A stretch of DNA of 32,000 nucleotides from Candidatus Competibacteraceae bacterium (lineage in GTDB: Bacteria; Pseudomonadota; Gammaproteobacteria; Competibacterales; Competibacteraceae). The notes under the pieces were generated by a model. It was not told where the DNA came from, made no database searches, and saw only the letters and a list, made by a program, of their open reading frames with translations. Below, one piece after another: positions 9,276 through 28,943 of this stretch; position 1 is the first letter of the stretch, and each line of letters starts with the position of its first letter. The stretch covers positions 83,634 to 115,633 of the forward strand of contig JADJQQ010000031.1 in the NCBI GenBank assembly GCA_016712625.1, read 5' to 3'. The translations under genes and the position numbers were made by a program.

Positions 9276-11247
9276 CGTACATCGCTGCGGTCTTCCTGCG
9301 TTTGCTCGAGGATCATTAAGACGGCACGAAACTCCAGTCCCTTGATGCGCTGCATGGAGCCAAGCCGCACGCCAGGCTCCGCCTGCCCAGGATCGGCTTG
9401 CCGGGGTTGCAATTCCAACGTGCTGATGCCGGCGGATTCGAGCGCGGTGCGAATGAATCCGACGCTGGGCGTGACGCAGATCTCATGACTGCCCAGTTTT
9501 CCCTGATCGAGCAAATGCTGAATCCAGGTCACGGCGTAGTGGGCCAAAATGGTGCGGTCGGAGAATGACCGAACCTGAGGCTCGGGACCGCGGAACACCG
9601 AACGGTCTCCCGTGGTATCGGCGCTCCCGCCATCCAGATCATCCACGGGGACGCCCGCCAGCAAGCCCTGCGCCCAGCGCCGGATCTGTTCGCTGGTTCG
9701 ATAATTGATCTTCAGCCGGCGGGAACGGCCGCGCACCTCGATCCCGGCGCGGCTCAAGGGGATGGCAAGGCTGTGGTAAATCCGTTGGTGACCATCGCCG
9801 ATCAGGCACAGCGGATCGGACGGGTTCCCAGTCGTCGGCGTCAAGGCGGCGATCAGCCGGAGTGCTTCGAGGCCAAAGTCCTGGAGTTCGTCGACCAGTA
9901 CGTGCCGATAGGCGGTAAAGCCGCCCCGCTCGACCACCAGCCGCGCCTGATGGACCAGCCCCTCGAAAGTCAGGCGATTGCGCTGGTGCAACAAACGGTT
10001 GAATTCCAGGAATACCGGCCAGAGCGTCCGCCGTTGTTTCCGGTCCAGGCGCGGGCGGCCGGACCGAACCGCCGTCAGGTAGCCTTCTTCGCTGTCGATG
10101 CCCATCGTATCGATCACCAGTTCATATTCGTCGCGAATGCAGTCCCGGTCGAATCCGGCGGGCAGGGGGCCAGCCAGCACCGTGCGCCACAGGTCCTCCC
10201 GTTCGGCGTCCTCGATCACCTTGCCCTGCCAGCCGCCTCGCAAACAGATGGTCCGGGCGAGTTGATGCAGATTGGTCACTTCGATCTTCCGGGCGGCGTC
10301 CGGCGCCAGCTTCCGGATCAATTGCTCCAGGGTGACGGACAGGGTGGTGGTGTACGTGGTCACCAGCACCCGATCCTTGGGATCGCTCAACTGGCGGGCG
10401 AGATGAACCGCCCGGTGCAGGAGGGCCACGGTTTTCCGGTGCCCGCCGCGCCGTTGATCTTGATTGGACCCTGGGTCCGCCATTCGACCAGTCGGCGCTG
10501 ATAGGGATGCAGGAAGACGCGCCATTCCTCAAGGTCCTGGGAGAGGATGGCTTTCAGTTGCTCTTCCCCTTCGATCAAGACCAGGTCCATATTCATGGCC
10601 TGATCCAGATGAGTGAAATCGCCCGGACCGGCCAGCGGCGGCGTTGGCTTGGCCGGTTCGCCGAGCATTTCAGCGATAGCCTCATCCAGGGAAAGACCGC
10701 AAATCACACCGTAAAGCACCTGGATGGCTTCCTTGGGCAGATAGTCCGCCACTTCCTGGAAGGCCCCATCATTTCGGATCGCGCGCACCGCCGGGATCAA
10801 GGCCCGGGGAGTCCCCGCCTGGAACAACTCCTCGTCGCTCAGTGTGTCCAGCGGGTAATGACCGGTGGGCGTGGGGTGTTTCCGCGCCTGGGCGTCCGCG
10901 GTGGCCTGGATTTCCTGAACATCGAAGACTTGCAGGACGCCGAGGGCTGGGTGGGCCTCAAAGCGTTTGTTCCGGCACCAGCGATACGCCTCATCATGGT
11001 GATCGATGTACATGAGCAGGAAGTTGTCGCCCTGTTCCGGCGCGATGACGACCGCCCGGTAATCGTCGCCGATGCGCGCGCTGCGGACCTTGGGATCGAC
11101 GGCTTCGGCGAAAGACTCCAGGTGAATGGAGGCTTGAGTGCTGTCGTCCTGAAACTTGCGGACAAACTCGAAAACCTTTTTCTGCACCCGGATCGGCAAC
11201 CGGCCAAAGTCCTTGAGCACCTCCCGTGACAACATCAGTTTCGCCAT
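9188..11247 (-). pseudogene. UvrD/Rep-like superfamily-1 helicase with an N-terminal RelE/ParE-toxin-like domain, disrupted by a 1-nt deletion inside the Walker A motif
   Basis: Two overlapping ORFs (10387..11448 and 9188..10525) join into one protein if one A is added to the run at 10432-10435. The observed GGA AAA CCG reads GTGK-PWPS. GGA AAA ACC GTG would restore INGAAGTGKTVALLHRAVHLA. Downstream helicase motifs are present (VLVDELQDFG, INYRTS, GLEFRAV). ATG 11247 has GGAGG 8 nt upstream and lies 4 nt after the upstream stop. Confidence 0.8.
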
Positions 11248-11251
11248 GCTC

Positions 11252-14200
11252 TTATCCTCCCACCGGCAGCATGGCGCTGAGCCATGCCGTTCCTCGGGTT
11301 TGAAGGTCGGCCAGGGTGACCACACGCCAGCCCGCCGCCTGCCATTCGGCAGCGAAAGCGGCCTGATCGCCCACCACAATGACAACCCCTCCGCTCTCGC
11401 CCTCCCTTTGGGTAGGGGAAGGCGCCTTGCGCCAAGCCAGCTCGGCAAAGCAGTCGCTGGCGGCGGACCGGTAGACCTCGACTTCCGGCAGGGTGACGCC
11501 CGCCGCGGCCAGTTGCGTGACTACCGGTTGCAAGGCGGGAACGACGGCTTGCCGGATCTCCCGCCAGCGCTCATCCAGCGCCGCCTCGCGCTCCAGCTCC
11601 AAATCCGGCGCCGTTCCCTGCGCTACCTCGGTAGCGACGAAGACCTTGAACTGCTGGCGGAACTGGAACAGGTTGACCAGCGCCAGAAAACGCCGCCAGC
11701 GGTCGCAAAATCCGGGTTGCGCTCTGTCCTCGGCGGAGTCGAGCAGACGCAGCCAGACCTGGATGCGGTCGGCCAGGCCATTAATCGCATCCGGGACCGA
11801 GGCCAGCGCCAACAGATCGTCACCCTCGGCAGCCAGTTTCTCAGACACGACCCACTGGCCTTCCGGGTTGACCGACGGCATGGCAACGCCGGCGCGGTCG
11901 CGCCACCGTTCGACCGTATCGATCAGGGCGGCTTGTCCAGAGGCTGCCCCACTGCCCGCCAGCAATTGCAGGGACAGCATCAGGCATTCATCGGCCAGCC
12001 GGGTCCAGCCGGGACGATCCGGCGCCAGCAAATACGCCTTCAACTGGCTGAAACCATCGGCGGTCGCGAGCCGAACGTCTGGATGCTGGACGCCCTGCTG
12101 TCGGGCCGCGGCGAGTCGAGGCGGCAGGATCCTGGCGACAATAGGAGGCTGAAGCAGTCGGATCGGCGTCTGCGGATCGGGATTCAGATCGTGCCAGGTG
12201 ATGTTCCATACGCCATAAAGCCCGCTGTCGAGGATGGCGCGCCGCTTCCTGAAGTCGTCGGGCAGGCGGCTGTCGGCCTGGCCCGGCCGGACATGCGGTT
12301 CGAAGCCGTCCGCGAAAATGGCGACGGGTCGGATCTCCGGATCGTCGGCGGTCAGCAGGAAATCCGGCTGGCAGGGTATCGCCACGCCTTGCTGCGGGCC
12401 GAGCTTGGGTTGCAGTTCCAGCGCCCAGAGCCGGGGATGAGCGCCGACCCGGAAGCGGAACCCGAGCGCGCCCTTGATGAGGGTTCGGGTCCATTCCCCC
12501 GGCTGACCGGCGATGTCCGTGGCGACAAATTCCCGCAACCGGTCCACCAGCCGCTTTTCCAGCAAGCTGCCGAACAGCGCTCTGGCGTCAACCTGGTCCA
12601 GGGTCTTGACGAGCGTTCGCCGCTGGCCGGCCTCGATCAGACGGCCGAGCAGCCGGATACCCCGCTCCCGGCTGATCTGGTCCGACCGGTACTGAAGATG
12701 ATAGGTGCGGATGCAGCGATAGCAGCCATCCGGATCATCCTGGCCGTGCCGGCAGGGCAGCAGGCGGCAACTGCACGACTCAAGGGCGTCCCGGGCACGG
12801 CGGAGCAGATCCATGATGCCTTCGCCGGGCAACCCGGACGCACCGCCGCCAGTATCCTGAAACAGCGTTTTCAGGAAACCGGTGCCCCCGGGAACCGCGT
12901 CCATCAGCACCAGGTAATGCCTGCGCAGGCCATCCTGGGGTTGCGGTACGCTCTGGGGCATCACCAGCAAATGGCCGGGATTGCCCTGGAACCGCAGCCG
13001 GAACCCCAGCACGAGGCAGGCGGTCAGCGTCGCGATATCGTCCTCGTCCACCTCGGGCAGCAGGATGCGAATCGCCTCGGAGCGCAGTTCCCGGTACAGG
13101 TAGAACGCTTCCCACTGGTAGGCATCGCCCGGCCGGCCCTCGCTTTGCATTTTTTCGGTCTTGCGCCGCCCGGAACAACTGCGCCGATGCCTGAGTTGGC
13201 TGCGGTCGCCGTCGCTGTCGACCGTCACCCCGCAATGGACGCAGGCCAGGAATCCGGTGTCCGAAACCTGCTGATCGACGCCGAACGGGAGGCTGCCGGG
13301 GATTTCGGCAAACCCGGTGTTGACCTGGCGCAGAGCCAGCGCCGCCCGGTATTCGATGCCGAAGGGTTCCATCTCGTCCGCCACCGCGCCACTCGGCCCA
13401 TCGAGGGTGGTGTCGAAGCTGTTCACGAGGCGATAGAAGCGCTGTTCCCGCTCGTCGGCCCGGTCGCCGGACAGGCTCTCGTAATGCTCCATATAGGAGA
13501 TCGCCTGGGACCGGGCGAACTCGAGAAACCGCTTGTGCTGGCTCCGATCCTGTTGTGAATGCGCGTCCGCGGCATAGCCGCACTGCGGGCAGACCGGGGA
13601 GGCATCGGGCCGGTTGAGTTCGTCGGTCCGCCGGATATGTCCGCATTCGCCGCAGATCGCCCACTGTTCCAGCAGGGGCTGGGCTGGCGCGCCCAGCGCA
13701 AGCTGCTGGATTTCGAACGCATGGCTGTGAGTGTAGAAGCGGTTGCGGGGGGCCAGTTCCCGCAACGCCGAACCTGCGCCCCGCACCAGGTCATAGGCCT
13801 GCAATGCGCCGTCATGCTCCCGACCCGGACCGGGCCGGCGACGATGGTCGTTGTAGAGCACGCCGTTGAAATGCACCCCCCGTTCGGGAAAGGCGTAGTT
13901 CGGCAGCAACCCGTATTCGATCAGGATTTCCAGGACCGTGGTGCGATCCAGGTGGGTCTGCCTCACGCGCAGAATCCGGTTTTCCTGTTCGATTTCCCGC
14001 AGACTTTCCCCGTCGCCGTTGACTTCGGCTTCTTTCTTCTGGTCGGTGAGCCGTTTCCGCGCATTGACGATCGCCTGGCGCTGGCGGTCGAAATCCCGGG
14101 CGGCGTGGTGAATGCGCTCCCGCAGCACTTCGGCGCGGCTTTCCCGCAGAAACCGTTCCCGGGTATCCTCGCGCACGTCGGCGCTGAACCGGGCCAGGAA

Positions 14201-17200
14201 CGCGCCCTGGAGCGCGGCTTCCCGCTGGGTCGCCCAGGCCAGGAGCGATGACAGCGGTCCCTGGCCGCTGTCCAGATCCTCGACCAGTTGCCGGCCGGTG
14301 GCGGGCAGCGCCTGGATCACGCCTTCTCGGACCGCGCTGTCGAAACAGAACGCCAGATACTGGCGCACCAGCACCGCGCTGGCGTCCAGCCAGCAGCCCG
14401 GCGGTTCGATTTGGCCGGCCAGCATTTCTCCCGGGCGGCCGAAGAAGAACAGATCGTGAGGCCGCTGATTGATCACCGCCAGCACCAGCGCCGTGCCGGT
14501 GCTGCGTCCGGCGCGGCCGATCCGTTGCAGGTAACTGGCGGTGGTGGGGGGGATCGAACACAGCAGGGTGCTGGACAGATCGCCGATATCGATGCCCATT
14601 TCCAGCGTCGAGGTGGCGGTCAGCACGTTCGGATCATCGGCATGGCCGCCGTGATTGAACTGATACTCGAGCGTTTCCCGTTCCTCGGTGGTCAGCAGAC
14701 CGGTATGCTCCTGCGCAAACACGCGGCGTAAAGCGCCTTTGCGATAGCGCTGCTGATAATAGATTTGCCGGTCGCTGGAAACGATCTGCTGGTAGCGACC
14801 CTGCTCGCCCTGGTAGGCGAGGGTGGGCGCGCCGTCCCAGTCGGCGGCCTCATGCCAGGGGCGATACAGCCGCTGGCCGTTGTCGTCGCACGCATATTGC
14901 ACACCGTCGGCCCACAGGCGCGCGCCGTCGGCGGACAGGGCGATCAGGCGCTGATGGCCGTCGCGCTGCACCTCTCGCAGCAGGCCCGATTCGCAACCCG
15001 CCTCCAGGAAGGCCCGAATCAGGTCCAGGATCGAGGTTTCCGGAGTATGGGTCAGCGCCAGCGCGCGCCGCGCCCAGACGATCTGCCAGGGGGATATCTG
15101 GCCCGGCCGGGAGGAAGCCAGCAGGTGATCGTGATCCCGGTGCGGCGCCAGGGCCATCAATCGGGGCCGATAACGTCCGGCGGGCGGGAACAGTTCCCGG
15201 CCAGGAACCACCTTGCCAAAGGGATATTTGCCCCAGTAACGCTGGCGGGCGTAACTGTCGAGATAGGGATGATAGAGACCTCCACGTTCGCGCTGGCGGT
15301 GCAGGATGCCGAGCAGCCAGCGGCGGAGCCGTCCAGCGCCGGTAGCGGTGTCCCCCACCACGAGCGACGGATCGATGGCCGGCAACCGCCGGCGCACGAG
15401 GGCCACGGTAGCCTCGATGACGGCCTCATCCCAGCCCAGGGTCGCGCTGGCATTACCTTCCAGGGTCCGGCCATGGGTCAGCATCAGGCTGAATTCGCTG
15501 CACGCTTCCCAGGCGAGCCGCTGTTCGATGGCGGTGTGCAACGGGGCATCCGGAGGCGTGTTCGGGGGTTGTTCGCGGTAGGCGAGATAGGGTGGGTATT
15601 CGCGCAGATCGGGCGGCAGCAGGGTCGAGATCGCCTCCCGGAGGCTGCCCGGGCGACCCGGAACCGGTTCGCTCCAGTAGTCCAGCAGGCGCGCGCCGAG
15701 GGTGGCGAGCGGCAGTCCGTCGGCTCCGGCCTCATCGATAACCCGTTGCAAGGCCGTGCGCAGGGTGAAATGAAAGGTGCGGGCCGAGAAGAAGCCGGCG
15801 CGGTGGCTGGCGTCCTGGACGCTGTCGGTAAAGGCCAACAGTTTGGGATCGTGGTTCAGCACCGACCCGAACAGTTCATCGATGGCGACGCTGCCCAGAG
15901 TGGCGGCCTGGGCGCCGATGAACATCAGGGAATCGTCGCTGCGGCAGTGGGGGCACTTGACCGCGCCCACCGTCTGCCCGGCGGCATGGGTGCGGGTGTC
16001 CCGGTTTATCCGGACGCGGAAGGTCGGGCTGCCGGTCAGCGGACAGGGTCCCGGTCCCAGGCGCAGGACCAGACTGTCTTTGGACAAATGCCATTCCGCG
16101 ATCGCCAGCGCGCCTTGGGCGGGCGCCGCGTCATCGTCGGGATACCAGGGACTGAGGGCGACCATCCACTTCGACATGGGCCGTTCGAATCCCCAGCCCT
16201 GATAAATCCGGGCGACGTCGGCGATCAACTGAAAACCCTGGACGCCGCGCGCCTGAATCGGATTCTCGGAATCGGGATCGACCATCGCCACCCAGACCGA
16301 CTCGCCGCATTCGGTGCAGTGGGCGACCGGCAGGATACGCTGATCGGGGCGCTGCTCATCCAGCCAGCCGAAGACCGGCTGGTCGCTGACCAGGCGGCCC
16401 AGGCGGCGCAGCTCCCGGATCCACAACTGCACCTGGGTCGGGGTCAGGGGCCGGGGTGGCAACAGTTCCGCCCCCTCACCCCCGCCTTCCCCCGCGAGGG
16501 GGGAGGAGGCCTTGCGGCGGGATTCCCGGGCCTGGGCGACCAGGGCGAAGAATGCCGACAACACTTCGCTACGCGCGCCAAACTCCGGAACGGCGCGCAG
16601 GGAGGGATCGGCGGTAGCCACTTGGGCGACCAGTTCGGACCAGGTCCGGGGACCGTCCCGGGTGGCTTCCAGCAGGCCGGCGAACAGTGGTTGCGACCGG
16701 ATCCACTGGCCCAGGGCCAGCGTCCAGCGCGTTGCCGGGGTGTCATCACCCGGCGGCAGCCGGCCGGGGAACAGCGTCGTCCCGTCGTCGGTCGGGAAGG
16801 CGGGCGCGCCGAACCGGGGAGCGATCCGGCGAGCGAATTCCGGGGCGGTTTCGCCCTCGCGCGCCCGGCTGTCGCCGGGAGCCGGAACCGGGGTGAAATC
16901 GGCCAGCGGCGCCCGCAGGATTTCCTCGACGGTGAGCCGGTCTTCGCCGATCACGCATTCCGGCTGGAGCGGTTCCTCGAACAGCCGCCCGGCGAAGTCG
17001 GCCAGGCGCGCCAGCGGATCCTGGGTGGTTTCGTCGTCCCCGGCGGCAATCGTGGCGCTGGTCCCGATGCAGCACAACTCTCCCTGGGCGATGTCCAGCC
17101 GTTCCTTGAGCCGGCGGATGAGACAGGCGACATCCGCCCCCTGCGCCCCGTCATAGGTGTGCAGTTCGTCGAGGACCAGATAGCGCAGGGTGCCTTTGCG

Positions 17201-17941
17201 GTTATAGCGCCAGATGGCCTTGTCCTTCGGGCGCATCAGCAGGAAGTCCAGCATTTTGTAGTTGGTCAGCAGAATGTCGGGCGGCTGGTCCTGCAACATT
17301 TGCTGGTCGGTAATGGCCCGCCAGGTCTTCTCCACCGCGCCGTCCAGCTCGATGGCCATCTCCCGGATGGCGCCTTCCTGGGTTCGGTTGGGATTGGCGG
17401 GATCGAAGCGGCCGGTGTAGAGGCCGACGCGAATTTTGGCTTTCCGCGTGGGTCCGGTTCCCCAGCACAGGGCCGGCGTCCGGAAGATTTCCTCGGCAAA
17501 GCGCCCGGCCTGATCGGCGGCCAGCGCGTTCATGGGATAGAGGATGATCGCCTTGATGCCTTTCCGGCCGGCGCGGTGTTCGCGATAGCAGTGATCGAGA
17601 ATCGGCACCTGAAAACACTCGGTTTTACCCGAGCCGGTGCCGGTGGTAATCAGGGTTGAGGCCGGCTCTTGTCCTTTCGAGGTCAGTCGCCGCCAGGCCA
17701 GCCATTGGTGACGGAAGGGGAGAAAGGGAACCGGCAGGTCGAAGAACCGGTTGCCGTGATCCGCGGCCGGGCGAAAGGGCCGGCGAATCTGTACCCACGG
17801 CCCCTTGAACAGGCCGTTTTCCGGGTCGTTGATGAAGCGCCGCAGGGCTTCTTCGTCGTCGCGCCGGCGAAAATTGAACGTGGCTTCCAGATAGTGGATA
17901 ACCTGCTGGCGAATGTCCTGAGCGAGGGTGGCGGGGAGCAT
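11252..17941 (-). CDS. 2229-aa DEAD/DEAH-box (Lhr/DrmA-like) helicase fused to a DUF1998-like (DrmB-like) zinc-ribbon module and a ~480-aa C-terminal extension
   Basis: Motifs read in the translation: TTGTGSGKTE (aa ~99-108), LVLDELHTYDG (DELH, ~256-264), GTSAT, LLAFTDSVQDASHRAG, TATSTLEMGIDIGDL and YLQRIGRAGR (~1108-1146). These are followed by LLPNYAFPERG, CGECG-x18-CPQCG, CVHCG and CSCRLLPC-x10-CYRC (~1345-1745), typical of DUF1998 modules. The C-terminal part contains QPDFLL...VAIFADGFEPH. Confidence 0.9.
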   Translation of the reverse strand: MLPATLAQDIRQQVIHYLEATFNFRRRDDEEALRRFINDPENGLFKGPWVQIRRPFRPAADHGNRFFDLPVPFLPFRHQWLAWRRLTSKGQEPASTLITTGTGSGKTECFQVPILDHCYREHRAGRKGIKAIILYPMNALAADQAGRFAEEIFRTPALCWGTGPTRKAKIRVGLYTGRFDPANPNRTQEGAIREMAIELDGAVEKTWRAITDQQMLQDQPPDILLTNYKMLDFLLMRPKDKAIWRYNRKGTLRYLVLDELHTYDGAQGADVACLIRRLKERLDIAQGELCCIGTSATIAAGDDETTQDPLARLADFAGRLFEEPLQPECVIGEDRLTVEEILRAPLADFTPVPAPGDSRAREGETAPEFARRIAPRFGAPAFPTDDGTTLFPGRLPPGDDTPATRWTLALGQWIRSQPLFAGLLEATRDGPRTWSELVAQVATADPSLRAVPEFGARSEVLSAFFALVAQARESRRKASSPLAGEGGGEGAELLPPRPLTPTQVQLWIRELRRLGRLVSDQPVFGWLDEQRPDQRILPVAHCTECGESVWVAMVDPDSENPIQARGVQGFQLIADVARIYQGWGFERPMSKWMVALSPWYPDDDAAPAQGALAIAEWHLSKDSLVLRLGPGPCPLTGSPTFRVRINRDTRTHAAGQTVGAVKCPHCRSDDSLMFIGAQAATLGSVAIDELFGSVLNHDPKLLAFTDSVQDASHRAGFFSARTFHFTLRTALQRVIDEAGADGLPLATLGARLLDYWSEPVPGRPGSLREAISTLLPPDLREYPPYLAYREQPPNTPPDAPLHTAIEQRLAWEACSEFSLMLTHGRTLEGNASATLGWDEAVIEATVALVRRRLPAIDPSLVVGDTATGAGRLRRWLLGILHRQRERGGLYHPYLDSYARQRYWGKYPFGKVVPGRELFPPAGRYRPRLMALAPHRDHDHLLASSRPGQISPWQIVWARRALALTHTPETSILDLIRAFLEAGCESGLLREVQRDGHQRLIALSADGARLWADGVQYACDDNGQRLYRPWHEAADWDGAPTLAYQGEQGRYQQIVSSDRQIYYQQRYRKGALRRVFAQEHTGLLTTEERETLEYQFNHGGHADDPNVLTATSTLEMGIDIGDLSSTLLCSIPPTTASYLQRIGRAGRSTGTALVLAVINQRPHDLFFFGRPGEMLAGQIEPPGCWLDASAVLVRQYLAFCFDSAVREGVIQALPATGRQLVEDLDSGQGPLSSLLAWATQREAALQGAFLARFSADVREDTRERFLRESRAEVLRERIHHAARDFDRQRQAIVNARKRLTDQKKEAEVNGDGESLREIEQENRILRVRQTHLDRTTVLEILIEYGLLPNYAFPERGVHFNGVLYNDHRRRPGPGREHDGALQAYDLVRGAGSALRELAPRNRFYTHSHAFEIQQLALGAPAQPLLEQWAICGECGHIRRTDELNRPDASPVCPQCGYAADAHSQQDRSQHKRFLEFARSQAISYMEHYESLSGDRADEREQRFYRLVNSFDTTLDGPSGAVADEMEPFGIEYRAALALRQVNTGFAEIPGSLPFGVDQQVSDTGFLACVHCGVTVDSDGDRSQLRHRRSCSGRRKTEKMQSEGRPGDAYQWEAFYLYRELRSEAIRILLPEVDEDDIATLTACLVLGFRLRFQGNPGHLLVMPQSVPQPQDGLRRHYLVLMDAVPGGTGFLKTLFQDTGGGASGLPGEGIMDLLRRARDALESCSCRLLPCRHGQDDPDGCYRCIRTYHLQYRSDQISRERGIRLLGRLIEAGQRRTLVKTLDQVDARALFGSLLEKRLVDRLREFVATDIAGQPGEWTRTLIKGALGFRFRVGAHPRLWALELQPKLGPQQGVAIPCQPDFLLTADDPEIRPVAIFADGFEPHVRPGQADSRLPDDFRKRRAILDSGLYGVWNITWHDLNPDPQTPIRLLQPPIVARILPPRLAAARQQGVQHPDVRLATADGFSQLKAYLLAPDRPGWTRLADECLMLSLQLLAGSGAASGQAALIDTVERWRDRAGVAMPSVNPEGQWVVSEKLAAEGDDLLALASVPDAINGLADRIQVWLRLLDSAEDRAQPGFCDRWRRFLALVNLFQFRQQFKVFVATEVAQGTAPDLELEREAALDERWREIRQAVVPALQPVVTQLAAAGVTLPEVEVYRSAASDCFAELAWRKAPSPTQREGESGGVVIVVGDQAAFAAEWQAAGWRVVTLADLQTRGTAWLSAMLPVGG

Positions 17942-17944
17942 GGT

Positions 17945-18370
17945 TTATGGCCCATGATCCCAAGGATTGATCAACATTAACGGAGCCGCCGCAAAGTCTC
18001 GAACATTGCGCGTGACCAGAGCCAGGCCGTGCTCGACCGCCGTTGCCGCGATGATCGAATCGAAGGCCGCCATCGGCTTGCCCATCGCCTCCACTTGGGC
18101 GCACAGCTCGCCCCAGTAACCGGCCGTATCGCCGGTAAAGGGCAGAACGCGCTCGCCCAGGCTTGCCTGAAGCTGATCCAGCCAGACCAACAACTCGCTT
18201 TTGCGGCGGGAGACCGGCAATTTGGCAACGCCGCGGCGCAATTCCGCCAGCGTCATCGCTGCGACAAACAATTCGTTCTCCGCCCGCGCATCGACCCAGG
18301 CCAATACGGTGCTATTGGGGGCCGGTTTCACGAATTCCGACAACACGCAGGTATCGAGCAGATACTTCAC
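17945..18370 (-). CDS. vapC: PIN-domain toxin, VapC/FitB-like (141 aa, GTG start)
   Basis: VKYLLDTCVLSEF..., ...LAELRRG... and ...DSIIAATAVEHGLALVTRNVRDF supply the conserved PIN acidic residues. GTG 18370 overlaps the antitoxin stop in a GTGA junction. The stop TAA (17945-17947) lies only 3 nt before the ATG of the 2229-aa helicase. Confidence 0.85.
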   Translation of the reverse strand: MKYLLDTCVLSEFVKPAPNSTVLAWVDARAENELFVAAMTLAELRRGVAKLPVSRRKSELLVWLDQLQASLGERVLPFTGDTAGYWGELCAQVEAMGKPMAAFDSIIAATAVEHGLALVTRNVRDFAAAPLMLINPWDHGP

Positions 18371-18609
18371 CACTCGATCTCTCGCACCGGCTCGGCCGAG
18401 CGTTCCAGGTCCAGCGGTTCGCCGCGCGGGGCGTTCCGCAGCACCTCCCGCAACGAGAGTCCCGAGCACAGGCGGCGGAATTCGGGCGCGGCGATCACCA
18501 CCACGGCCTCGGCGCCGCGCCGGGTGACCAGTTGTGGACCTTCCGCCAGGGTGCGATCCACCAGTTCGCTGAATCGGCTTTTGGCTTCCTGTAACTGCCA
18601 GGTGTGCAT
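18367..18609 (-). CDS. Phd/YefM-type antitoxin (80 aa)
   Basis: MHTWQLQEAKSRFSELVDRTLAEGPQLVTRRGAEAVVVI is a typical Phd/YefM N-terminus. The 4-nt GTGA overlap with vapC is classic type II TA geometry. Confidence 0.8.
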   Translation of the reverse strand: MHTWQLQEAKSRFSELVDRTLAEGPQLVTRRGAEAVVVIAAPEFRRLCSGLSLREVLRNAPRGEPLDLERSAEPVREIEW

Positions 18610-18738
18610 GAGAGGCCTCGATGACTGAAATCAGAAACTAGTCAGTCCGGTCAGATTGATGGGATTGCACGCAACTGTCAACCCATCATCGGAAATCGGT
18701 TGCCAAAAAGACTCAGTAATCGTTTGGCTTTTTGCCAG

Positions 18739-19221
18739 TTACTCGCCGATGCTGGCCAGTACCTTGGCGACCAGCCCCGGACTCAGAAAAAGACCAGCAG
18801 CTTGAGCCTGCATGATCCAGGGGTGCGCCTGTTTAATGAGGCCCTGTTGTCGCGCCAGCAGAATGACGCCCAGGGTACCCACCAGTGGGACATGATGCGC
18901 ATGGGCGCAGGCGCGACCTGCTTGATCGTCGAGGATCGCGATACGGGAGTTTCCCAGGCAATGAGCGATGACTTGCGATTCGCCCGCGCCCAGTCCCCAG
19001 GCGGCAACCGTCGTCGGCAAAGGTAGATTCGGTACAGTTCGCCCCTTGGCCCATTGTTGGGTCGTAGCCGCCGATGGGTCTCGATGTAGTCCGGCGCCCA
19101 CTTCCGCAATCACCGCTGCTGGAATCAGGGCGGCGGGCGCCAGGTTTTCGAGAAAATCCAGCCGGTTAATCCGGGAAAGGATGATCAGTGGCGAGGCGTT
19201 CACCACCCAGGCGTCAGGCAC
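18739..19221 (-). CDS. DUF3368-type PIN-like putative toxin (160 aa)
   Basis: N-terminus AWVVNASPLIILSRINRLDFLENL... resembles the DUF3368/COG2405 PIN-like family. It overlaps its upstream UPF0175-like partner by 8 nt. Confidence 0.7.
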   Translation of the reverse strand: MPDAWVVNASPLIILSRINRLDFLENLAPAALIPAAVIAEVGAGLHRDPSAATTQQWAKGRTVPNLPLPTTVAAWGLGAGESQVIAHCLGNSRIAILDDQAGRACAHAHHVPLVGTLGVILLARQQGLIKQAHPWIMQAQAAGLFLSPGLVAKVLASIGE

Positions 19222-19465
19222 GGCAGACTTCCTCGATCATTTCTTCAGCCGAGTATTGGCCAACGGGGATACGCCGACGGGCGAGTTCATCAATAAATTC
19301 GGCCCGGGACAATCCAGCAATTTCAGCCGCTTTATCCTGGGCGAGCTGGCCTTGGGCATACCAGTGGCAGGTGGCCGCTAACAGAAGTTCTTGGGCAAAA
19401 TCGCCTGGCGCTTTGCGAAGAGCGCCATAGACATCATCGGGGAGATTCAAGGTGATCGTTGTCAT
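19214..19465 (-). CDS. UPF0175-family putative antitoxin (83 aa)
   Basis: Internal ATG 19465 with AAGGA upstream. MTTITLNLPDDVYGAL...AQGQLAQDKAAEIAGLSRAEFIDELARRRIP contains the HTH-like segment typical of UPF0175 partners of DUF3368 proteins. Confidence 0.7.
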   Translation of the reverse strand: MTTITLNLPDDVYGALRKAPGDFAQELLLAATCHWYAQGQLAQDKAAEIAGLSRAEFIDELARRRIPVGQYSAEEMIEEVCRA

Positions 19466-19577
19466 CTCGGTATCCTTGCGGATTGAAAGTAGCAATGGGT
19501 CGGTCTGGTCAGCTTGATCGGGGCACGCCATGCCGCACGCCGGTTTTGACCTCTGCGCCCCAAAGGTATGACCGCAA

Positions 19578-22500
19578 TCATTGCTGTCCCCTGAATACTT
19601 CATATGCCACCCGATAATCCTCTTCCCGGTCAACCGGGGTGAAGGGCGGGTAAAAGGTCCGGGTGACGGTCTGGCGGCCGTTGTCGCTGGGCCAACTTAC
19701 CGTGATCGGCTTGCCGCGATAGTTCAGGGCGGCGTCGCGGAAATCAGCGTTGGGCAACAGCAGTTTCAGGGCGTCGCGTAATTCCTTAGCCCCGGCGTCC
19801 TTGCGGGTGGTGGTCGGGAGGCGGCGACCGTGGGCGTCGAACAGGTCCTGCCGCTCGTAGCCGCGCATGACCGGGAACTGCACCTGATAAATGGTGATGA
19901 GCTGCTTGAGCGTCAGGCCGAGGGCGAGCGCGACCAGTACGTCAATTTCCAGCAGCGCCTGGCGGCGGGCGAAGTCAGTGCGGAGCGCCGAGCCACGCTG
20001 CCAGTCGGCGGTCAGGGCCGACCAAGGGGTTTCCAGGGCCAAGCGGGGGTCGGGGGAGGTAAAGGTGTCAGCGTTGTACGCCGGAGTAAAACAGCAGCGC
20101 CAAACATTGGCGTAATGCTGGGTTAGAGCCGCAAGTCGCAACAACCTCGCGCTGGCTAACTCTATGACTGGACCCTCGATCAAGGGCAATCCACGCAAAT
20201 CATCTTCATGAATATTCGAGCGTCCCTTGACCTTGATGATGAAATCGAAGGCAATTGAACTCGCTGCGGCAGAGAAAATGAGTAGCCATCGTTCATCGAT
20301 GATACTGACAAACCGGACTGCGTTGATTCCGACAATTCCCGGAGCCGACAAAGTTCCAATGAGTGTCCGCTCATTCGCTGGTTGACCCATCGCCCGAAGA
20401 GCAAACTTCGGAAAAGCTGATAATGGCCTCGGCAACCTCCGCATCGCGGGATCGTCCGGCACACCCTGCTTAATCTTCACCTCTTTGAATTTCTCTGCAA
20501 ACTCCGTGCGGTCGGGACGATTTTCGTGGGCGAGCAGCCAGGCAACAGCAGCATCAACCTCGCCTTGCCACTCCGTAAAGTAGCCGAATAGGCGGGCGGT
20601 GCGGGTGCCCGGCAGGTTCGGGTCGATGCCGTAGCGTTGGAGAGGTTCGCCCAGCAACGCCTCATAGGCCGGCACCGCATCATCAGCGACAGGCCAGAAC
20701 CCCGGAACGCTCGGTTTCGGCCATTCCGGGATTGCGGCATAAAACCGGGTCAGGTCGCCCTCCCGATCACCGGGCCGGTAGACGGCGCGCGGCAGGAAGT
20801 CATCGGGAATGGCCGTCAGGTCAATGTCGTCGTAATGACCGTTGGCGATGCAAGCCGTGCGCGGGGTCTTGTTGAACGGATTGCCGACGTAGAAGTGCGG
20901 GCCGGAAAGTACCCATTGATCCGCCGTCTGCGGCTGGAAACTGGGGTCTTCCTGCCGGGTAATGATGCCGTCGCGCTGGCTGTTGCTCTCGTGGAACATC
21001 TCGGTCGCCAGGTATTCGCCCTCCAAATCACCAAGCCGCCTGGGCGCATCGGCGAATTTCCTGAGCACGGCAAGTATTTCCCGGCTGTGTACTTGGGGCA
21101 AGCGGGCCTGTAAAGCGAGCGTGTCCGGCTTTTCAAACAGCCGGGCGAACAGGGCCAGTTCGGTTTCAGTGATGGTGACCAGACGTTGGCAGTGACCACG
21201 GGTTTCCCATTCGCCCGCATCGTTTTTGATGCCGGGGATGGGGTCTTCCGGACGGTCGTGGCGCTGCGACGCGGTAATCGTGATGGGATCAAAGGCGTTG
21301 AACAGGGCGACGAAGCGCGGCGTGACTGGCGCCCCCCGATAGATGTTGAGGCTGAACGCCATCACGTGGTGTACATCAGCGAACAGAATCTTCTCATTCT
21401 TCATCTGATAGTGAGCGAGCAGCCGCCGATAATACTGCTCGCGGAATTCCCCACCCTTCGGATCGTCGAACACGCCTTCGGGATGCAGCAGCCCAGCCAC
21501 CCCGACCGGCGACAAGAGGCCCCAACTCCGCTCGATGAAATTCTTGTAGAGGTTGGTCTGCACACCCACCAGCGCCGGGTAGAGCGCGTGGCTGTTGAGG
21601 AACGCGGACGCTCCCTCGCCCAGGGTGAACCGGTCCCGATAGGCCGCCCACCGCCCGGCCTCCTGCAACAGCCGGGACCGCGCTTCGTTATACCCGGCGC
21701 TCCTGGCCGCCCGCACCCCCAGCAGCGGCTGCCATTCCGCCAGCAGCGGCGCGTCGTTCCACGACACCTTGAGCCACGGCGGATTGCCGAACATCAGGTC
21801 AAAGCCGCGTGGAGTGTATTCATCTCCCCCCTTTCGCAAAGGGGGGAACTGAGTAGTTGATGTTGTGAGGGAGTAAGCTGGCCCCAGCACTTCGGGAAAC
21901 ACCAGCTCCCAGTGGTGAAACGGCTGCTCCTTAAGCACGTTGCGCCCGTGGGCGAACCACGGCACCAGCGCCGCCGCTTCCCCGGCATCCAGCACCCCGT
22001 CATCGAGGGTCGCGGCATACAGCGCCTCGACATTGAACGCCTCGCCTACCCGCATCTGCATCATCGAGCGGTTGGCTTCATTGAGCCGGGTCGTTTCCAG
22101 CAACAATTCCACGCTCGCCAGCCAGGCGTCCCGGCTCGGCAATTCCGTGGCCCAGTCCAGCGGCCAGAACCACAGTCCGCACCAGGCGTCCATGACCAGC
22201 TTCAGGCGCTGGAAGGGACCGGACTCCGCTTCCAGCTTCGCCTTCACCGCCTCCTGGCTGGCCAGGGTGGGGCCCGGCGCGAGCGCTGCCGCGCTTTCCG
22301 AAGGCGTCGGCCAGACGCTGGCGGTGCAGGCGGTTCGGGCCAGCGCGCCATGCCGTTCCGCCGCGTAGGCCGCCCACAATTCGTCGATGCGCGCCGACAA
22401 CGCCAGGGCCAGCTTCGCCTCCTGCCCGGTCCACTTCTTCCTGACCTGCTTTTTCTGCCACTCGGCGACGTGGGCGCATTCCGCGGGCCAGTGCGCCTTC

Positions 22501-24959
22501 ATCAGCTTGTCGCGCCCGGCGGGGGCCATCTCCTCGTCCCAGACCAGGAAGTGATAAACCTCATCCGCGCCGCGCGATTCGCCGGGCGCCAGCAGCCGGG
22601 GAATCGCCGTGTCCTTGCCGAAAAAATCCCCGTCGGTGAGTCGCTTGACCTTCCACACCGCGCGCCGGGCGCCGATCAGGCTGTTGCCGGCGCGCAGCCG
22701 CAGGCCGAACCAGGGCACCGCGCCGAGGCAGTAGAGGTCCGGCCCGCCGCCGTTTCCGTCGCCGCTTTCCCGGACGCGCAGCCGGTGCATCGAGCCGAGC
22801 CACAGCGACAGCGCGCCGAGTTCGACGGCGGTCGGGTTCAGGTCCACGCCGTAGACGTTGCGGGTGGCGATCCAGTGACGCACCCGGCGGTGCTCGTCCT
22901 CGTAACGGTCCGGGGCGATGGTCTGGCCGGTCTGCTGCTGCTTGAGCTTGAGATAGGCGTGGGCCAGTTGCCGGGTGGCTTCGTTGATGAAAGCCGCCGA
23001 ACCCATGGCCGGTTCGCACAGCGTCAACCCCAGAATCGCATCGGCCCGATCCGGCGTAAGGTCCTTCAGCCGTTCGGCCAGCACTTCCCGCACCAGCGCC
23101 TCGGTCAGCACTTCCGGCGTGTAGTAGGAAGCGGTCTCGGCCCGGTCGATGCCGTTCAAATGCAGGATGAACTCACCCTTGCGGTAGATGCGCGGCTTGC
23201 CGGTGCGGCGTTCGAGGATGAGTTCGCCGGGTCTGAACAGCTCTTTCTGCGCTTCCGGCACGAACCAGGTCGGCAGATCGGCGGGAATCGCATCAGCGAA
23301 GACGCCCGCCGGGGCGCCGCGCCGGGGCGGCGGGGCTTCATCCTCGGCGTCCTCACCTTCCTCCTCGTCGCCGGCGCTCGCGTTCTGCTTTTTGGTCGAG
23401 CACACCTGGATCAGGTTCTCGGTGGCGAAAAATCCCTTCCACGACAGCAGGCCCTCATAAACCGCGCCCAGTTGCACGACGCCGAGATTGCCGTAATCAA
23501 TGCGGCCAATCGTGCCGGTCTTCTCATCAACGCCCATCGACAGACAGCGGATGACCTGCTGCAACACGCGGTTGGGCAGCCGGGTCCGGTCCAGCAGGGG
23601 CGTGGACTGCGGATCGAACAGCGTGGCGGTGAGCGGCTGGATGGTGAAATGCCGGGCATAGCCCGCCGCCAGTGCTTCCCCCCGGCTGCGCAGCGGCAGG
23701 CTTTGCTGACCGCCGCCGAACAAGTCGTCCTGATGGGCGAACATTGGCGGCGAGTCGGTGATGGCCACGTCCGCCGGCGGCGGGTCCTGGCCGAAGCCCT
23801 GATGGATCAGCGCAAACAGTTTCCGCAGATGCTCGTGAAAATAGGCCCCGTTCTCGCTGGTCACGCCCGGCTCGCCCAGATCGGCCAGATCGCGCAGCGC
23901 CTCCAGGCTGTAGCCGAGCCGGTAGACCTCCTCGTTGATCGGCAACGCGCCGAGATCGCTGGCGTGAGCCTCCGCGTACAGGCAGAACAGCAGCCGATAG
24001 ACAAAGACCAGGGCTTCACGCCGCAGAATCTCGGCATCAATCTCGCGGCGATCATCGGGCAGCGCCGGTTCGTCATCGCCCAGCCGCAGATAGGACAGCT
24101 TGCGATTGCGGCGATCCTCCACCCAGGCGTTGGCGATGGCGGTGATCGCCTCCCGCACCTGGCCTTGCAGGGCCTTGGACACGCCATGGGTGAATCGGTG
24201 GCTCTGGCCCTGCAACCGTTCGTGCAAGGGTTCTTCCGCTTCGGCCTCGGGGGCCAGCGTCGCCGCGCCCAGCAAGAGCGCAATCGCCTCGAAGGCCCCC
24301 GCTTCGCGCCGTCCGAAGGCGTCGTCGAGATCGAAGCGCAGGTAGCGCCCCTGCGCCCAGGCGTGCCGGTCGAAGAGCTGAATCTGGCTGCCGGACAGCA
24401 GCATCAGCCAGCGCGGCGCGTTCTCCTGGCGGAAGATCAGCGGCAGCGCCTCCGACCAAAGCCCGGCGAAGGATTTAAACGCCTCGTCCTCGTCAGGCGG
24501 CAGCCGCTCGACGGCCTGATCCAGCGGGTCTTCCGGCATGGCGTCCGCCGGCAGGCTGGTGTCGGGCAGGCAGAACGGGGTTTCGGCCACGACCAGCCAG
24601 GGCCGGCCGTGCCGGTAAAGCCGCAGCAGGATCGGCAGCCGCAGTTTTTCCGACGCCAGCGCCAGGGGCTGGCGGTCGAGCGTATAGCCCAGCGCCTGCA
24701 CCAGTTGCCCGTGCCAGCCGGCCAGTTCCGCGTCGGTCGCCCCGACCCGCAGCAGCGGCTGGTCGTAATCCAGCGCCTGGGATTTGGCGCGAAAGTAGGG
24801 TTCCGACAACGCCGCCAGCCGGCGGGCCGGGCTGGCGCTGCCCAGCGGACGCCAAGCTTTGAGGATCGGCTCGACATCCTTCTGAAACTGGCTGTCGAGA
24901 TAGTGAGCGGCATAATAGTCGCCGATGTTGTGGATGCTGGTGTCCAGGGCCATTTTCAA
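19578..24959 (-). CDS. 1793-aa gamma-class N6-adenine DNA methyltransferase, Eco57I/DrmMI/PglX-like (alternative ATG at 24953)
   Basis: Motif I-like [15 protein letters not shown] (rc of about 22990-23022), then [20 protein letters not shown] and catalytic motif [14 protein letters not shown] (NPPW = rc of 21774-21785). Motif I precedes motif IV, which is the gamma order. About 600 aa precede the methylase core and about 740 aa follow it. The start overlaps the SNF2 stop. Confidence 0.9.
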
Positions 24960-27900
24960 ACGCCCTCAATGGCCAGCACCAGGCGCGTGGTGGCTTGGGG
25001 CGCGGCCTCGAAGTGGGCGTCGCGCCAGTTCTCGCGCCGGTCCTTAAGGTAACGCTTGATCTCGTCCTTTTCCTGTCGGAGCTGCGCGGCCTGCCGGCTG
25101 TCTGGAACCAGCCCGGCCAGGGTTTCGTCCAGCTTGGCGATGCGGCGGTCGCGCCAGTGCGCCAGGCGCGCTTCTTCTTTTTCAAGCATGGGCTTGATAG
25201 CCTGCTGGCGTTCGGTTTTGAGCATGTTCAGGGACTTCAGGCTTTCCTCAACCGCCGCGACGACGAAGCCCTGGAGAATCTCCGAGGACAGCGCGCCGCG
25301 CCGGCCGGTATCGGCGAGCTGGTCGAAGCGGGCGCGGGCGAGTGCTTCCTTGAGCGGCTCTTGGTGGTAACGGCCGCCTTTGCGGAAGGAAATGGCGTGC
25401 GTATCCACGATCAGTGGGGTCCCAGCGCGGGAGCTGATTTGGCCGATGAAGCAGAAGCAGAGTTCGCCGGGTTGCAGGTGCGGCGAGGCGATCAGCGGGG
25501 CTTCGCCACGGGGCATCAACATCATCAGCCGCTCCGCCAGCCAGCGCAGGACCGGATGCTGCTCGGTGAGCAACAGCTCGTTGCTCCACTGGCCCTTCCT
25601 CGCCAGCGCGGCGCGGATAGCCAGGTTGACTCGCTCCGGGTCGGTGGTGAAATGGAATTCTCCCTGCTCGGGCCAGGCTTCTTCCGGCAGCGCGGTGGCG
25701 CCGAAGATCACCCCATCCTCGGCATCCGGCGCGCCCAGCCGACGCCGGAGTTCGGGCGGTGGGGCAAACATCCAGAGATTCCCGGTTTTTTCGAGATCGC
25801 GCCAGCGGTGGTCGCCCATTTCGTCCTTCAGGTAACGGTAGCCAGCCTCCAAAAACCGGGCGTCGTCGTAGAGCCGAACCCGCGAATTGTCAGTGGATAA
25901 GCGTTCGCTCCCCGCGCCCGCTCGCAGAGGGGTTGGGGGTGAGGGCGGTGAAGTGGGGGAGAGGGCCGGCGCGGGCGCGTTGCCCAACAGAAAAGCCAGA
26001 AAATCCTCATGTCCGGCCAGATTCGCGGCCATCAGGTCCGCTTCCAGGCCGGCGCTCTCGGCGGTTTGCGGAGTGGTTCGGTCGAGGAGATCGGCATCAC
26101 CTGCGAGCAAACCGTTCTCGGCGATGTAGGCTTCTTCCGCCTCGGGGTCGTACAGTTTGAGGACGCTTTCCCCGGTGCGGGTGCTGCGGTTGATCTCCTC
26201 CACCTTGGCGACCAGGCGGGAAAAGAGTTCCTCGTCGCCCTTCAGTTCGCCTTCACGGGTGCGCACCATCAGATAACGGATGACCGGAGGGCGGCGCTGG
26301 CCGAAGCGGTCGATGCGGCCGTTGCGTTGAATCAGCGTGATGATCGACCAGGGCAGATCGTAGTGAATGATGTTATGGCACTCGTGGTGCAAGTTCACGC
26401 CTTCGGAGGCCACATCGGTCGCTGCCAGCAGACGCATCGGGCTGCTGCCGGTACCGAAGGCTTCGACGGTTTTGGCGAGCGTCACGTCGGGCTGGCCGCC
26501 GTGGATGATGGCCAGGATCTGGCCCGGCTGGTCTTCGTGCCGGTCGCTGAACGGGAGGCCAAATTCCCGGGCCAGCTCGCGCGCCAGCGCCGCCTGGGTG
26601 ACGGTGCTTTCGGTGAACAGCAGGATGCGTGGGCTGTCGGGCCGGCCGGTCCAGCCTATGGCGCGCAGCTCGCGCACCAGCAACTGGAAGCGGCTGGTAT
26701 AGGCGATGGGGAGGGTCGCCAAGCGGTTTCTGAGCGCCGTGAGCGCAGTCGCCTCATCTTCCCGATCCGGGCTGGCGCCAAGGTGGGCGAGGCGCTTGAC
26801 CACAGTGGACAGGCACGCCTCGGGGCTGCTCAGGAATCGCTTGTACAGGCCCCACTGAATGATGGCCTCGGTTTTGAACTTTCCGGTTTTCGCCTGGCGG
26901 CGGAGCCGGCCCAGTTCCGCATAAAGGGCTTCTTCCTCCGCGCTGGCTTCCACTGTCGTGGACGACAGCGGCGCCACCTGACGCTCGGCGAACTGATCAC
27001 CGGCCTCGCCGCGCACGTCTTCCTTGAAGCGCATCAGGAAAAATGGCGCGATGTCTTCCGGGCCGTATTCGCGGAACTTGGGGTCGGGAATAGCCGACCA
27101 GTCGAGCAGCGTAATGAGCCGGCCAAAGGTTTCGCGGCGACCGTTGTGGGGCGTGGCGGTGGTCAGGATCAGGCTGTCGGTGCGGCGGGACAGCAGGCGC
27201 GCCAGACGGTAGTTGAGCTGCTTCTCGGGGTTGGCTGCGGCGGCCACATTGTGGGCCTCGTCGATGACGACGACGTCCCAGCGGGTATCCTCCAGAAAAT
27301 GGCGATACCGGCCAATATCCTTGAGGGTGTCCATCGAAATGATGACGCGGTGGTAGACCTCGAACGGGTTTTTCGACGCAGGAATCCGCAGGCGCAATTT
27401 GGCGACGCCGGCCGAGTCGAGGCGCACCAGCGGAATCGCGAAGCGGTTCCAAAGCTCAGCCTGGAATTGCGTCAGCATCGACTTCTTGGCCAGCACCAAA
27501 ATGCGGCTGGCGCGGCCACGACGCATCAACTCGCTCAGGATCATGCCCACTTCAATCGTTTTGCCAAGACCCACCTGATCGGCCAGCAGGAGTCGAGGTC
27601 GCATTTGCAGCAAAGCACGGTGTACCGCTTCCTGCTGGTAGGGCATCGGCTTGAAGGCGCCCAGGCCCTCAACCTGCGGCTGGGGATCGGTCAACGGCAT
27701 CTGCCGCAACTGGGCTTCCAGGAACAGCCGGGCGCGGTCGAGATACCGGGGTCCCCCGTCGCGGACCAGCCGGGTCGCGCGTGGATCGATCGGGATGATG
27801 TCATCCAGCAGCGTCAAAAACGCCGCTTCATGGCCGCGCACCAAGTCATCCGCGCCGACGCAGCGGACGGTCTGAAAGTGCTTTTCGGCGCTCACGCCGG

Positions 27901-27964
27901 TCACCAGCCATTCGGCATCGCGGCAGAGAACCCGCATGCCGGGGGCGATCACGGGTTGGGTCAT
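24956..27964 (-). CDS. SNF2-family helicase/translocase, DrmD-like (1002 aa from ATG 27964; ORF open to 28021)
   Basis: [15 protein letters not shown] (motif I), VVIDEAHNV (DEAH, motif II), LTATPHNG (III), [12 protein letters not shown] (V) and [12 protein letters not shown] (VI). The TGA stop at 24956-24958 overlaps the TTG and lies 2 nt before the ATG of the methylase gene. Confidence 0.9.
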
Positions 27965-28087
27965 CGGAAGCCTTTTTGTTGTTCTGTGACGCGCCTGACT
28001 ACGTTCGAGCAAGGCAGGCACTAGTATGTCTAAAACGGGCTAAGCGAAACAGATCATCGAAAACCGTGGAGGCGATGCCTTTGGCGG

Positions 28088-28450
28088 TTGGCCGCCTGCA
28101 CCCTGCTGGAGGCGGGCGACATTCCCATTGCCCAAATCGCCGAGCTTGCGCTGCGTGAAGGACAAAGCTCGAACCCTTTGTATCGGGTCCACCGCTGGTT
28201 TGCTCGCCGGGTGGGCTCTCAGTTCCGTTCGATCCTCACTGCGCTGACGCTTCCCCCTGACAAGGCAGACGCCTTTTGGGATACCTATCTGGGCAGAACC
28301 TCCGTGCATGGGCGCTGTTGTTCTCGACCCGTTCATCGGCGGAGGCACAAGTCTTGTAGAGTCCATGCGCTGCAACGCCCGGGTGATTGGTCTTGATATC
28401 GACCCGGTCGCGACCTTTATTACCCGTTTTGAATTGGCCGCCTCCCGGAT
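28088..28450 (+). pseudogene. N-terminal fragment of a SAM-dependent DNA methyltransferase (DUF1156/COG1743-like), frameshifted and truncated
   Basis: Frame 1 reads LLEAGDIPIAQIAELALREGQSSNPLYRVHRWFARRVGSQFRSILTAL. Frame 2, from 28308, reads GAVVLDPFIGGGTSLVESMRCNARVIGLDIDPVATFI, a motif I of the DPFxGGGT type. The two frames join if one G is removed from GGG 28310-28312. Similarity stops around 28450, where a REP hairpin follows. Confidence 0.5.
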
Positions 28451-28464
28451 ACCTTATCCATCAT

Positions 28465-28500: not shown

Positions 28501-28527
28501 CTTGCTACTGTCCAAGCGATCAACCAT

Positions 28528-28934: not shown

Positions 28935-28943
28935 GGTCTCCGT

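Follow-up and report, generated by a model that had tools for sequence, protein, structure and literature searches.

What kind of system is encoded by the large helicase-methylase operon in a 32,000-nt stretch of a Candidatus Competibacteraceae contig (JADJQQ010000031.1, positions 83,634 to 115,633 of the forward strand; hereafter the window)? The genes form a tightly packed string on the minus strand, comprising an SNF2 helicase, an N6-adenine methylase, two toxin-antitoxin (TA) pairs, a DExH/DUF1998 helicase and a UvrD-like gene, with overlapping or almost abutting junctions. An earlier note, made from the letters alone, had taken it for a defence operon linked to methylation, akin to class 1 DISARM and of undescribed architecture. 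The genes and motifs listed there were all recovered, co-directional on the minus strand, in the open reading frame (ORF) listing and the profile searches. The relationship to DISARM holds, but the architecture had already been described: the combination of SNF2 protein, PglX-like methylase, YprA-like helicase and RelE-UvrD protein was named ARMADA type II in September 2025 (Bell et al., PMC12458937). With a probability of about 90%, we read the locus as an anti-phage system of ARMADA type II that lies on a mobile element beside a PRTRC cassette and has two independent TA modules in a variable slot between armB and armC.

Assignment of the locus to ARMADA type II

The ORFs of the window were searched with the Pfam, NCBIfam and PADLOC (2023) profile libraries. 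PADLOC gave mixed labels: the SNF2 protein matched DrmD, the methylase REase_MTase_IIG, the big helicase DruE and the last gene GajB. The profiles expected from the earlier reading (SNF2-rel_dom, Helicase_C, Eco57I, and MZB, which is DUF1998) all matched. The four core genes are:

24956 to 27964, minus strand: armA, BrxHII/RapA-like SNF2 helicase (Pfam SNF2-rel_dom and Helicase_C; PADLOC DrmD, 1.9e-84)
19578 to 24959, minus strand: armB, giant PglX-like N6-adenine DNA methyltransferase, 1791-1793 aa (Pfam Eco57I; PADLOC REase_MTase_IIG, 5e-185)
11252 to 17941, minus strand: armC, YprA-family DExH helicase with fused OB-CON-DUF1998, 2229 aa (Pfam DEAD, Helicase_C and MZB)
9188 to 11247, minus strand: armD, RelE-like N-terminal domain and GajB-like UvrD helicase, 686 aa with the frame restored (Pfam UvrD; PADLOC GajB)

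ARMADA type II is reported to have a strict gene order of BrxHII/SNF2, PglX-like, YprA-like and GajB-like helicase genes (PMC12458937). The window has this order, with four TA genes intervening between armB and armC. As an E. coli reference we used the island of strain S43, found by blastn, in which the four arm genes directly follow DruE, as in the published island. All four window proteins gave full-length, collinear alignments with S43 ArmA to ArmD, at 32-36% identity. The protein lengths are 1002, 1791, 2229 and 686 aa in the window and 952, 1637, 2113 and 704 aa in E. coli, where copies occur in NCTC 12900, ATCC 8739 and EDL933 (z5899-z5902). The catalytic motifs that were tested in E. 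coli (Walker A and B, NPPW) are kept. Both versions also have a RelE-like domain joined to UvrD, a motif region after DUF1998 that is termed Vsr-type in E. coli ArmC, and carriage on a mobile element. The window copy differs in its 1.6 kb of TA cargo between armB and armC, which the E. coli copies lack, in the last ~300 aa of ArmC, which cannot be aligned with E. coli ArmC, in a frameshifted armD, in having no Druantia III or Zorya II next to it and in its Competibacteraceae-type gammaproteobacterial host.

The E. coli system has been characterized experimentally. It was validated in two E. coli strains and protects directly, without abortive infection, against 13 of 80 phages (PMC12458937); defence was confirmed for EDL933 in a 2026 mBio paper (PMC13463889). 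All four arm genes are required, since deleting any one abolishes defence. It also depends on the ATPase Walker motifs in ArmA, ArmC and ArmD, and on NPPW in ArmB (PMC12458937).

About 50 loci, spread over several phyla, contain the four-gene cassette. The synteny comparison proposed in the earlier note, among homologues of the 2229-aa protein, recovered all four genes, in unchanged order, from Desulfonema limicola, Alcanivorax-type contigs and Bradyrhizobium. The relatives are also alike in size (SNF2 protein ~980 aa, methylase ~1750 aa, helicase ~2200 aa, UvrD-like protein ~680-705 aa). Metagenomes contributed ~45 loci, in which ArmD almost always followed ArmC, and the arm genes abut or overlap in both Bradyrhizobium and E. 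coli. Two loci had another arrangement: in L061 (2971-18151) and L062 (4871-20143) the order was armC-armD-armA-armB, with no armB upstream of armC, in contrast with the reported strict order.

The main value of this assignment is correct filing. What tools of the 2023 era return as DrmD-like, type IIG and DruE-like fragments is one complete ARMADA type II system. The host is an activated-sludge bacterium of Competibacteraceae type, far from the tested E. coli copies, so the family is extended and gains divergent sequences for mechanism work.

ArmA and ArmB

The longest armA ORF spans 24956-28021, and its probable true start is the ATG at 27964, which gives the 1002 aa also found in L013 and L069. 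ArmA carries GLGKT at residue 151, DEAH at 254 and an 11-residue motif at 565, and matched E. coli ArmA with 35% identity over 993 columns (E=3e-163). The start of armB overlaps the stop of armA by 4 nt, as the earlier note had stated, or lies 5 nt past it if the ATG at 24953 is used. Both diagnostic motifs of ArmB were found, namely the S-adenosylmethionine-binding motif EPAMGSAAF at 649 and NPPW at 1059. They are kept in E. coli ArmB, to which the protein is 36% identical (E=0). Matches of PglX profiles to ArmB were weak. Relative to L069, armB carries an in-frame 9-nt indel at window position 23355.

Rearranged versions of this part of the operon were also observed. In L007 (1-8038), whose backbone is otherwise identical to that of L006, a ResIII/RE_endonuc protein (1005 aa) and a 738-aa protein replace armA and the 5' half of armB. 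A 1154-aa C-terminal piece of ArmB is retained there.

ArmC

ArmC is a single polypeptide with DEAD, Helicase_C and MZB domains, in agreement with the earlier observation that the DrmA-like and DrmB-like parts are joined in one 2229-aa ORF. It contains GTGSGKT at 101, DELH at 258, LPNYAFP at 1346 and six CxxC motifs, and MZB/DUF1998 lies at residues 1642-1744. The match to E. coli ArmC had 32% identity over 1961 columns and 847 bits, whereas the neighbouring E. coli DruE gave 75 bits and aligned at the helicase core motifs alone. ArmC is thus nearer to ArmC than to DruE or DrmA, as measured by pairwise scores rather than by a tree. PADLOC scored DruE at 1e-89 (DruE3 and DruE1 at the top) and DrmA at 1e-14. 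The suggestion in the earlier note that the helicase could be DruE-like therefore held insofar as it is nearer to DruE than to DrmA, but the locus is not Druantia, as no partner gene was found. Homologues of ArmC are abundant: 7,948 of the 8,000 scored candidates had E<=1e-10, and the 120 best homologues listed were each at least 49% identical and nearly all full length. An exact look-up of the window ArmC sequence found no record of it.

After DUF1998, the sequence has PDF at 1859 and FADGFEPH at 1876, in a PD-(D/E)xK-like C-terminal domain. The equivalent domain of E. coli ArmC was termed a Vsr-type PD-(D/E)xK nuclease by the authors (PMC12458937). PDF and FxDGFxxH were invariant across 30 ArmC homologues, and the motif region was 37% identical to its E. 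coli equivalent (6e-20). Beyond it, residues ~1920-2229 (window 11255-12180) were confidently folded in the model, with a predicted local distance difference test score (pLDDT) mostly above 85. These last ~300 aa were common solely to homologues at least 50% identical, and a search for a fold match in the PDB found none. They may correspond to the degenerate extra nuclease-like domains of the literature, or to something else.

ArmD

The start of armD is the ATG at 11247, preceded by a GGAGGA Shine-Dalgarno sequence. The earlier note had placed a UvrD-like gene in the last position of the operon. This was correct, except that the gene lies outside the range given there. Aligned in two pieces with E. 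coli ArmD, the protein showed 35-36% identity, the N-terminal part matching residues 7-266 and the C-terminal part residues 262-646.

The N-terminus of ArmD adopts a RelE fold in its predicted structure, the feature demanded of an ARMADA type II member. The AlphaFold (AF2) model of residues 1-272 had a pLDDT of 81.6, and about 40 top Foldseek matches were all RelE, YoeB, YafQ or HigB. Superposition on RelE, YoeB and YafQ structures gave target-normalised template modelling (TM) scores of 0.6-0.77 and root-mean-square deviations of 2.3-3 Å. Two ArmD homologues carry the JGI name 'RelE'. Alignment of the N-terminal profile with single RelE and ParE sequences by hhalign was uninformative. A homologue search with the N-terminus gave only proteins of at most 474 aa, an apparent length effect of the tool and not biology.

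A further match was noted in this region. When the N-terminal profile (residues 5-73, window ~11029-11235) was compared with PDB sequences, the sole match was the N-terminus of the Legionella Dot/Icm substrate Ceg14 (PDB 9sxc, 9xch; E=1.4e-4).

Points against the assignment

Several observations weigh against the reading as ARMADA type II. The E. coli proteins that were put to experimental test are only 32-36% identical to those of the window, and ArmC was placed by scores and not by phylogeny. Direct phage resistance is known for the E. coli homologues only. Independent tests of the Vsr-type fold in the ArmC C-terminus were weak or negative. In hhalign, the motif region aligned with the right motif of E. 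coli Vsr (residues 42-71) at a probability of 16%, which is weak. Foldseek of the C-terminal model (pLDDT 88) against the PDB gave nothing significant, and a hidden Markov model search with the nuclease-core profile against PDB sequences had no match. A Pfam scan (E<=10) of 15 nuclease-core fragments returned MTES_1575 alone, in 2 of the 15 and at E=0.04. The region is homologous to that of E. coli ArmC, and its Vsr-type fold is putative.

A further point is that armD is broken in the window, where it is split into two ORFs by the following lesion:

10436 to 10438, minus strand: 1-nt deletion in armD, GGG to GG, in the Walker A codons (GAAGTGK/T), seen in the alignment with L001 and L002

The contig L069, 99.29% identical to the window over 20.5 kb, has the extra G and an intact armD of 686 aa. 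The two carry the same TA cargo and are three indels apart, one intergenic, one in armB (the 9-nt indel above) and this G. Their divergence is greatest in the UPF0175 and Phd genes (~4%, versus 0.2-0.8% in the arm genes). Either a mutation has inactivated armD here or the assembly is in error. Assembly error is possible because related JGI contigs show armB shattered on otherwise identical backbones. In E. coli the Walker A lysine of ArmD is essential (PMC12458937), and a genuine frameshift would therefore disable defence. The window copy would then probably be defence-dead, though methylation may persist.

The shattered armB genes were observed in L015 (965-6220) and L016 (987-6218), two contigs that have armB in 3-4 ORFs and share an identical ArmC with L014 and L017. 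This breakage is either decay or the result of long-read indel errors, and calls for caution over the armD frameshift.

Alternative explanations

The reading closest to the earlier note is a non-canonical class 1 DISARM, in which drmD and drmMI would be followed by a fused drmA-drmB, with UvrD in place of the PLD nuclease DrmC. The resemblance is real, as class 1 DISARM (DrmD, DrmMI, DrmA, DrmB, DrmC) likewise joins an SNF2 protein and a large N6-adenine methylase to a YprA-family helicase with DUF1998, and both systems are presumed to be methylation-linked. PADLOC matched ArmA to DrmD as listed above and ArmB to DrmMI at 2e-45, DISARM_DrmD was the top NCBIfam family for ArmA, and the ARMADA papers themselves call the system DISARM-related (PMC12458937, PMC13463889). 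However, DrmD reached 292 bits where its cut-off is 610, the DrmA models gave 19-28 bits against cut-offs of 950-999, and the DrmMI match was far below that of REase_MTase_IIG. One polypeptide holds both helicase and DUF1998, this helicase is of the Druantia/ARMADA branch, and the conserved fourth gene, a RelE-UvrD fusion, is foreign to DISARM. DrmC had no PADLOC match among the nine main ORFs, and the HxK(x)4D motif of PLD proteins occurred in no credible window ORF, as the earlier note had also found. With DrmA and DrmB not split, DrmC not found and the DrmD and DrmMI scores below equivalog level, we rejected membership in class 1 DISARM, which now seems very improbable.

Druantia was rejected as well (types I-III). 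The helicase resembles that of Druantia type III (DruH-DruE) in being a giant YprA-family protein with fused DUF1998 and zinc-binding CxxC clusters, and DruE is its best PADLOC family. It differs in having no C-terminal PLD domains, and a methylase and an SNF2 protein are its partners. PADLOC found no DruA-D, DruM/F/G or DruH among the window ORFs, and ArmA, ArmB and ArmD stand in their place. These missing partners, together with the 75 bits of E. coli DruE, also speak against the locus being a row of independent systems, in which the methylase would be a type IIG restriction-modification enzyme in its own right, the big helicase a Druantia-like DruE, and the SNF2 and UvrD helicases loose genes. 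Such a row would agree with the top PADLOC families of the methylase and the helicase and with the unrelated genes found between armB and armC in many loci. Yet the four genes keep their order across phyla whatever fills the slot, they abut or overlap in Bradyrhizobium and E. coli, and the loss of any single one ends defence in E. coli (PMC12458937). We give independent systems very little credence. There is a slight chance that the cassette mainly serves its mobile element, by methylating or protecting the element's DNA during transfer and establishment or by excluding rival elements. A complete PRTRC cassette adjoins the window locus, genes for RadC, DUF932, SSB, YqaJ and integrases lie beside other loci, and mobile elements carry the E. 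coli copies as well (PMC12458937). Against this, the cloned E. coli homologues protect on their own against the 13 phages (PMC12458937), and the slot cargo consists of anti-phage modules. This explanation does not exclude a role in defence.

Proposed mode of action

As an ARMADA type II system, the locus could work as follows. ArmB would mark host DNA with N6-methyladenine in the manner of PglX and DrmMI, and may have a part in the discrimination of self from non-self. ArmA, the SNF2 protein, and ArmC, a YprA-type translocase, would load on incoming unmodified DNA, which the putative C-terminal PD-(D/E)xK (Vsr-type) domain of ArmC could then cut. ArmD, combining a RelE-like domain with a UvrD motor, is predicted to be an essential accessory motor. 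The TA pairs would act as stabilising or stand-alone modules and not as parts of the system.

A variable cargo slot between armB and armC

ARMADA type II itself was already known; what remains of most interest is the slot between armB and armC, which the TA pairs exemplify. The window cargo consists of:

19214 to 19465, minus strand: UPF0175-family antitoxin, 83 aa (Pfam UPF0175, 4e-22; PADLOC PDC-S70; gene call in L069)
18739 to 19221, minus strand: DUF3368 PIN-like toxin, 160 aa, partner of UPF0175 (Pfam DUF3368; PADLOC PDC-S70, 1.9e-43, full length)
18367 to 18609, minus strand: Phd/YefM antitoxin, 80 aa (Pfam PhdYeFM_antitox, 1.3e-13)
17945 to ~18373, minus strand: VapC PIN toxin, ~141 aa (Pfam PIN, 3e-14; 141-aa gene call in L069)

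Only 3 nt (ACC) separate the VapC stop codon from the armC ATG. The pairs are co-directional passengers, probably co-transcribed with armC.

For a survey of the slot, 49 metagenome loci were pooled with the loci fetched earlier and the window, giving 33 distinct loci that show both the end of armB and the start of armC. The metagenome scan was seeded with a C-terminal fragment alignment and reached only ~4.7 kb upstream of armC, which left armB out of view in at least 13 loci. The gap between armB and armC was below 250 nt in 16 of the 33 loci and 0.5-5 kb in the other 17. In these occupied slots the ORFs were almost exclusively co-directional and packed up to the start of armC, and the inserts were nearly all known or candidate defence modules. 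About half of the sampled ARMADA type II loci therefore bear other defence modules at one fixed internal position.

The cargo was diverse. Among relatives with ArmC 84-97% identical, L001, L002 and L004 carry PDC-M55 A/B/C genes. L013 has UPF0175, an AAA ATPase and an S8 protease. In more distant loci we found GmrSD (Alcanivorax-type contigs), Fic with IS200 (Desulfonema) and a DEAD helicase with a DprA/SLOG protein (L014); the slot is empty in Bradyrhizobium and E. coli. By Pfam, the inserts include GmrSD_N, CBASS components (DncV-like, AGS-C and SMODS-associated NUDIX), SMODS with DUF6602, Gabija (an OLD-TOPRIM ATPase with UvrD), AbiEi/AbiEii, HTH-ImmA/IrrE, DUF3800, AAA_13, a Schlafen/AlbA_2-HATPase protein and a UvrD-like protein of 986 aa. 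Loci in which armB lay beyond the retrieved sequence had, among the genes upstream of armC, AbiEii, an AAA_15/DUF3696 protein and a KAP NTPase. Since several slot ORFs had no Pfam match, the slot is a cheap place to seek new defence genes.

Closely related backbones hold different cargo. The window, L013 and L001 are 97% identical in backbone and carry three different inserts. Compared with L013 or L001, the window is homologous through armB and UPF0175 as far as its position 19172, and homology then resumes exactly at the start of armC. L013, L002 and L074 all retain UPF0175 at the slot's left edge. A repeat search around the slot found no boundaries resembling attachment sites or insertion sequences (IS), and cargo exchange is therefore more likely to proceed by recombination in the flanking arm genes.

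Judged from these sequence comparisons, the TA pairs are cargo in a variable slot and not components of ARMADA. The earlier note was right that two TA pairs lie between the methylase and the helicase; its treatment of them as part of the architecture did not stand. We see an even chance that the junction is a dedicated, orientation-constrained slot that collects and swaps unrelated defence or TA modules, which would make ARMADA type II a carrier operon, a small defence island within an operon. The cargo may be expressed with armC-armD and possibly be functionally coupled to them, and the slot raises the question of whether cargo is co-regulated or synergistic with ARMADA. The searchable text of the two ARMADA papers (PMC12458937, PMC13463889) makes no mention of a cargo slot between armB and armC.

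BREX loci offer a parallel. Some have embedded accessory defence genes, for example the GmrSD-type BrxU, and combine a PglX-like methylase and a BrxHII-like helicase with unrelated defence genes inside the operon. The window locus differs in that the PglZ, BrxC and BrxL core is absent and the embedding is at one fixed junction, between armB and armC.

Decayed relatives were also found. In L074-L078 (e.g. L074 5024-7135, compared with window 20059-9061), armB is reduced to its final 460 nt, while UPF0175, a DUF3368 remnant of 52 aa and Phd-VapC are still present. From these contigs armC-armD has been cleanly deleted (window ~17954 to 9276), and an integrase and IS elements take the place of armA and most of armB. 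In these loci the TA cargo has outlived the defence system, an illustration of cargo outliving its carrier.

Mobile-element context and flanking genes

The window has a G+C content of ~65%. Its nearest relatives are metagenome-assembled genomes of Candidatus Competibacter and Contendobacter, which identifies the host as a Competibacteraceae-type gammaproteobacterium. A megablast search of the 16.8-kb region against PLSDB plasmids had no match, the window contains no tRNA gene, and a promoter and terminator scan gave results at or below chance. Directly beyond armD lies a complete PRTRC cassette (ParB-related, ThiF-related cassette; window 1004-7209, minus strand):

1004 to 1780, minus strand: PRTRC ThiF
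1844 to 2503, minus strand: PRTRC A
2475 to 3206, minus strand: PRTRC B
3291 to 4577, minus strand: 428-aa ORF within the cassette
4605 to 4952, minus strand: PRTRC C
4847 to 5344, minus strand: PRTRC E
5413 to 7209, minus strand: PRTRC ParB

The cassette marks a plasmid-like element or one resembling an integrative and conjugative element. Together with the RadC, DUF932, SSB, YqaJ and integrase genes that adjoin the arm cassette in other loci, it fits the published view of ARMADA on mobile elements.

Between the PRTRC genes and armD, a 433-aa ORF on the plus strand (7974-9275) runs towards armD and shares 88 nt with its 3' end. This ORF has a sub-threshold NERD match and is called as a gene in L069 too. 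On the other side of the operon, what is probably a third TA-like pair directly precedes armA (28605-29198, minus strand; also called in L069). It consists of an ORF of 84 aa that has no Pfam match and a 109-aa PIN-domain ORF. The plus strand carries, at 28308-28589, a short fragment similar to an N6_N4 methylase. The G+C content drops to 0.48-0.55 over 28 kb to 32 kb of the window, which suggests a module boundary.

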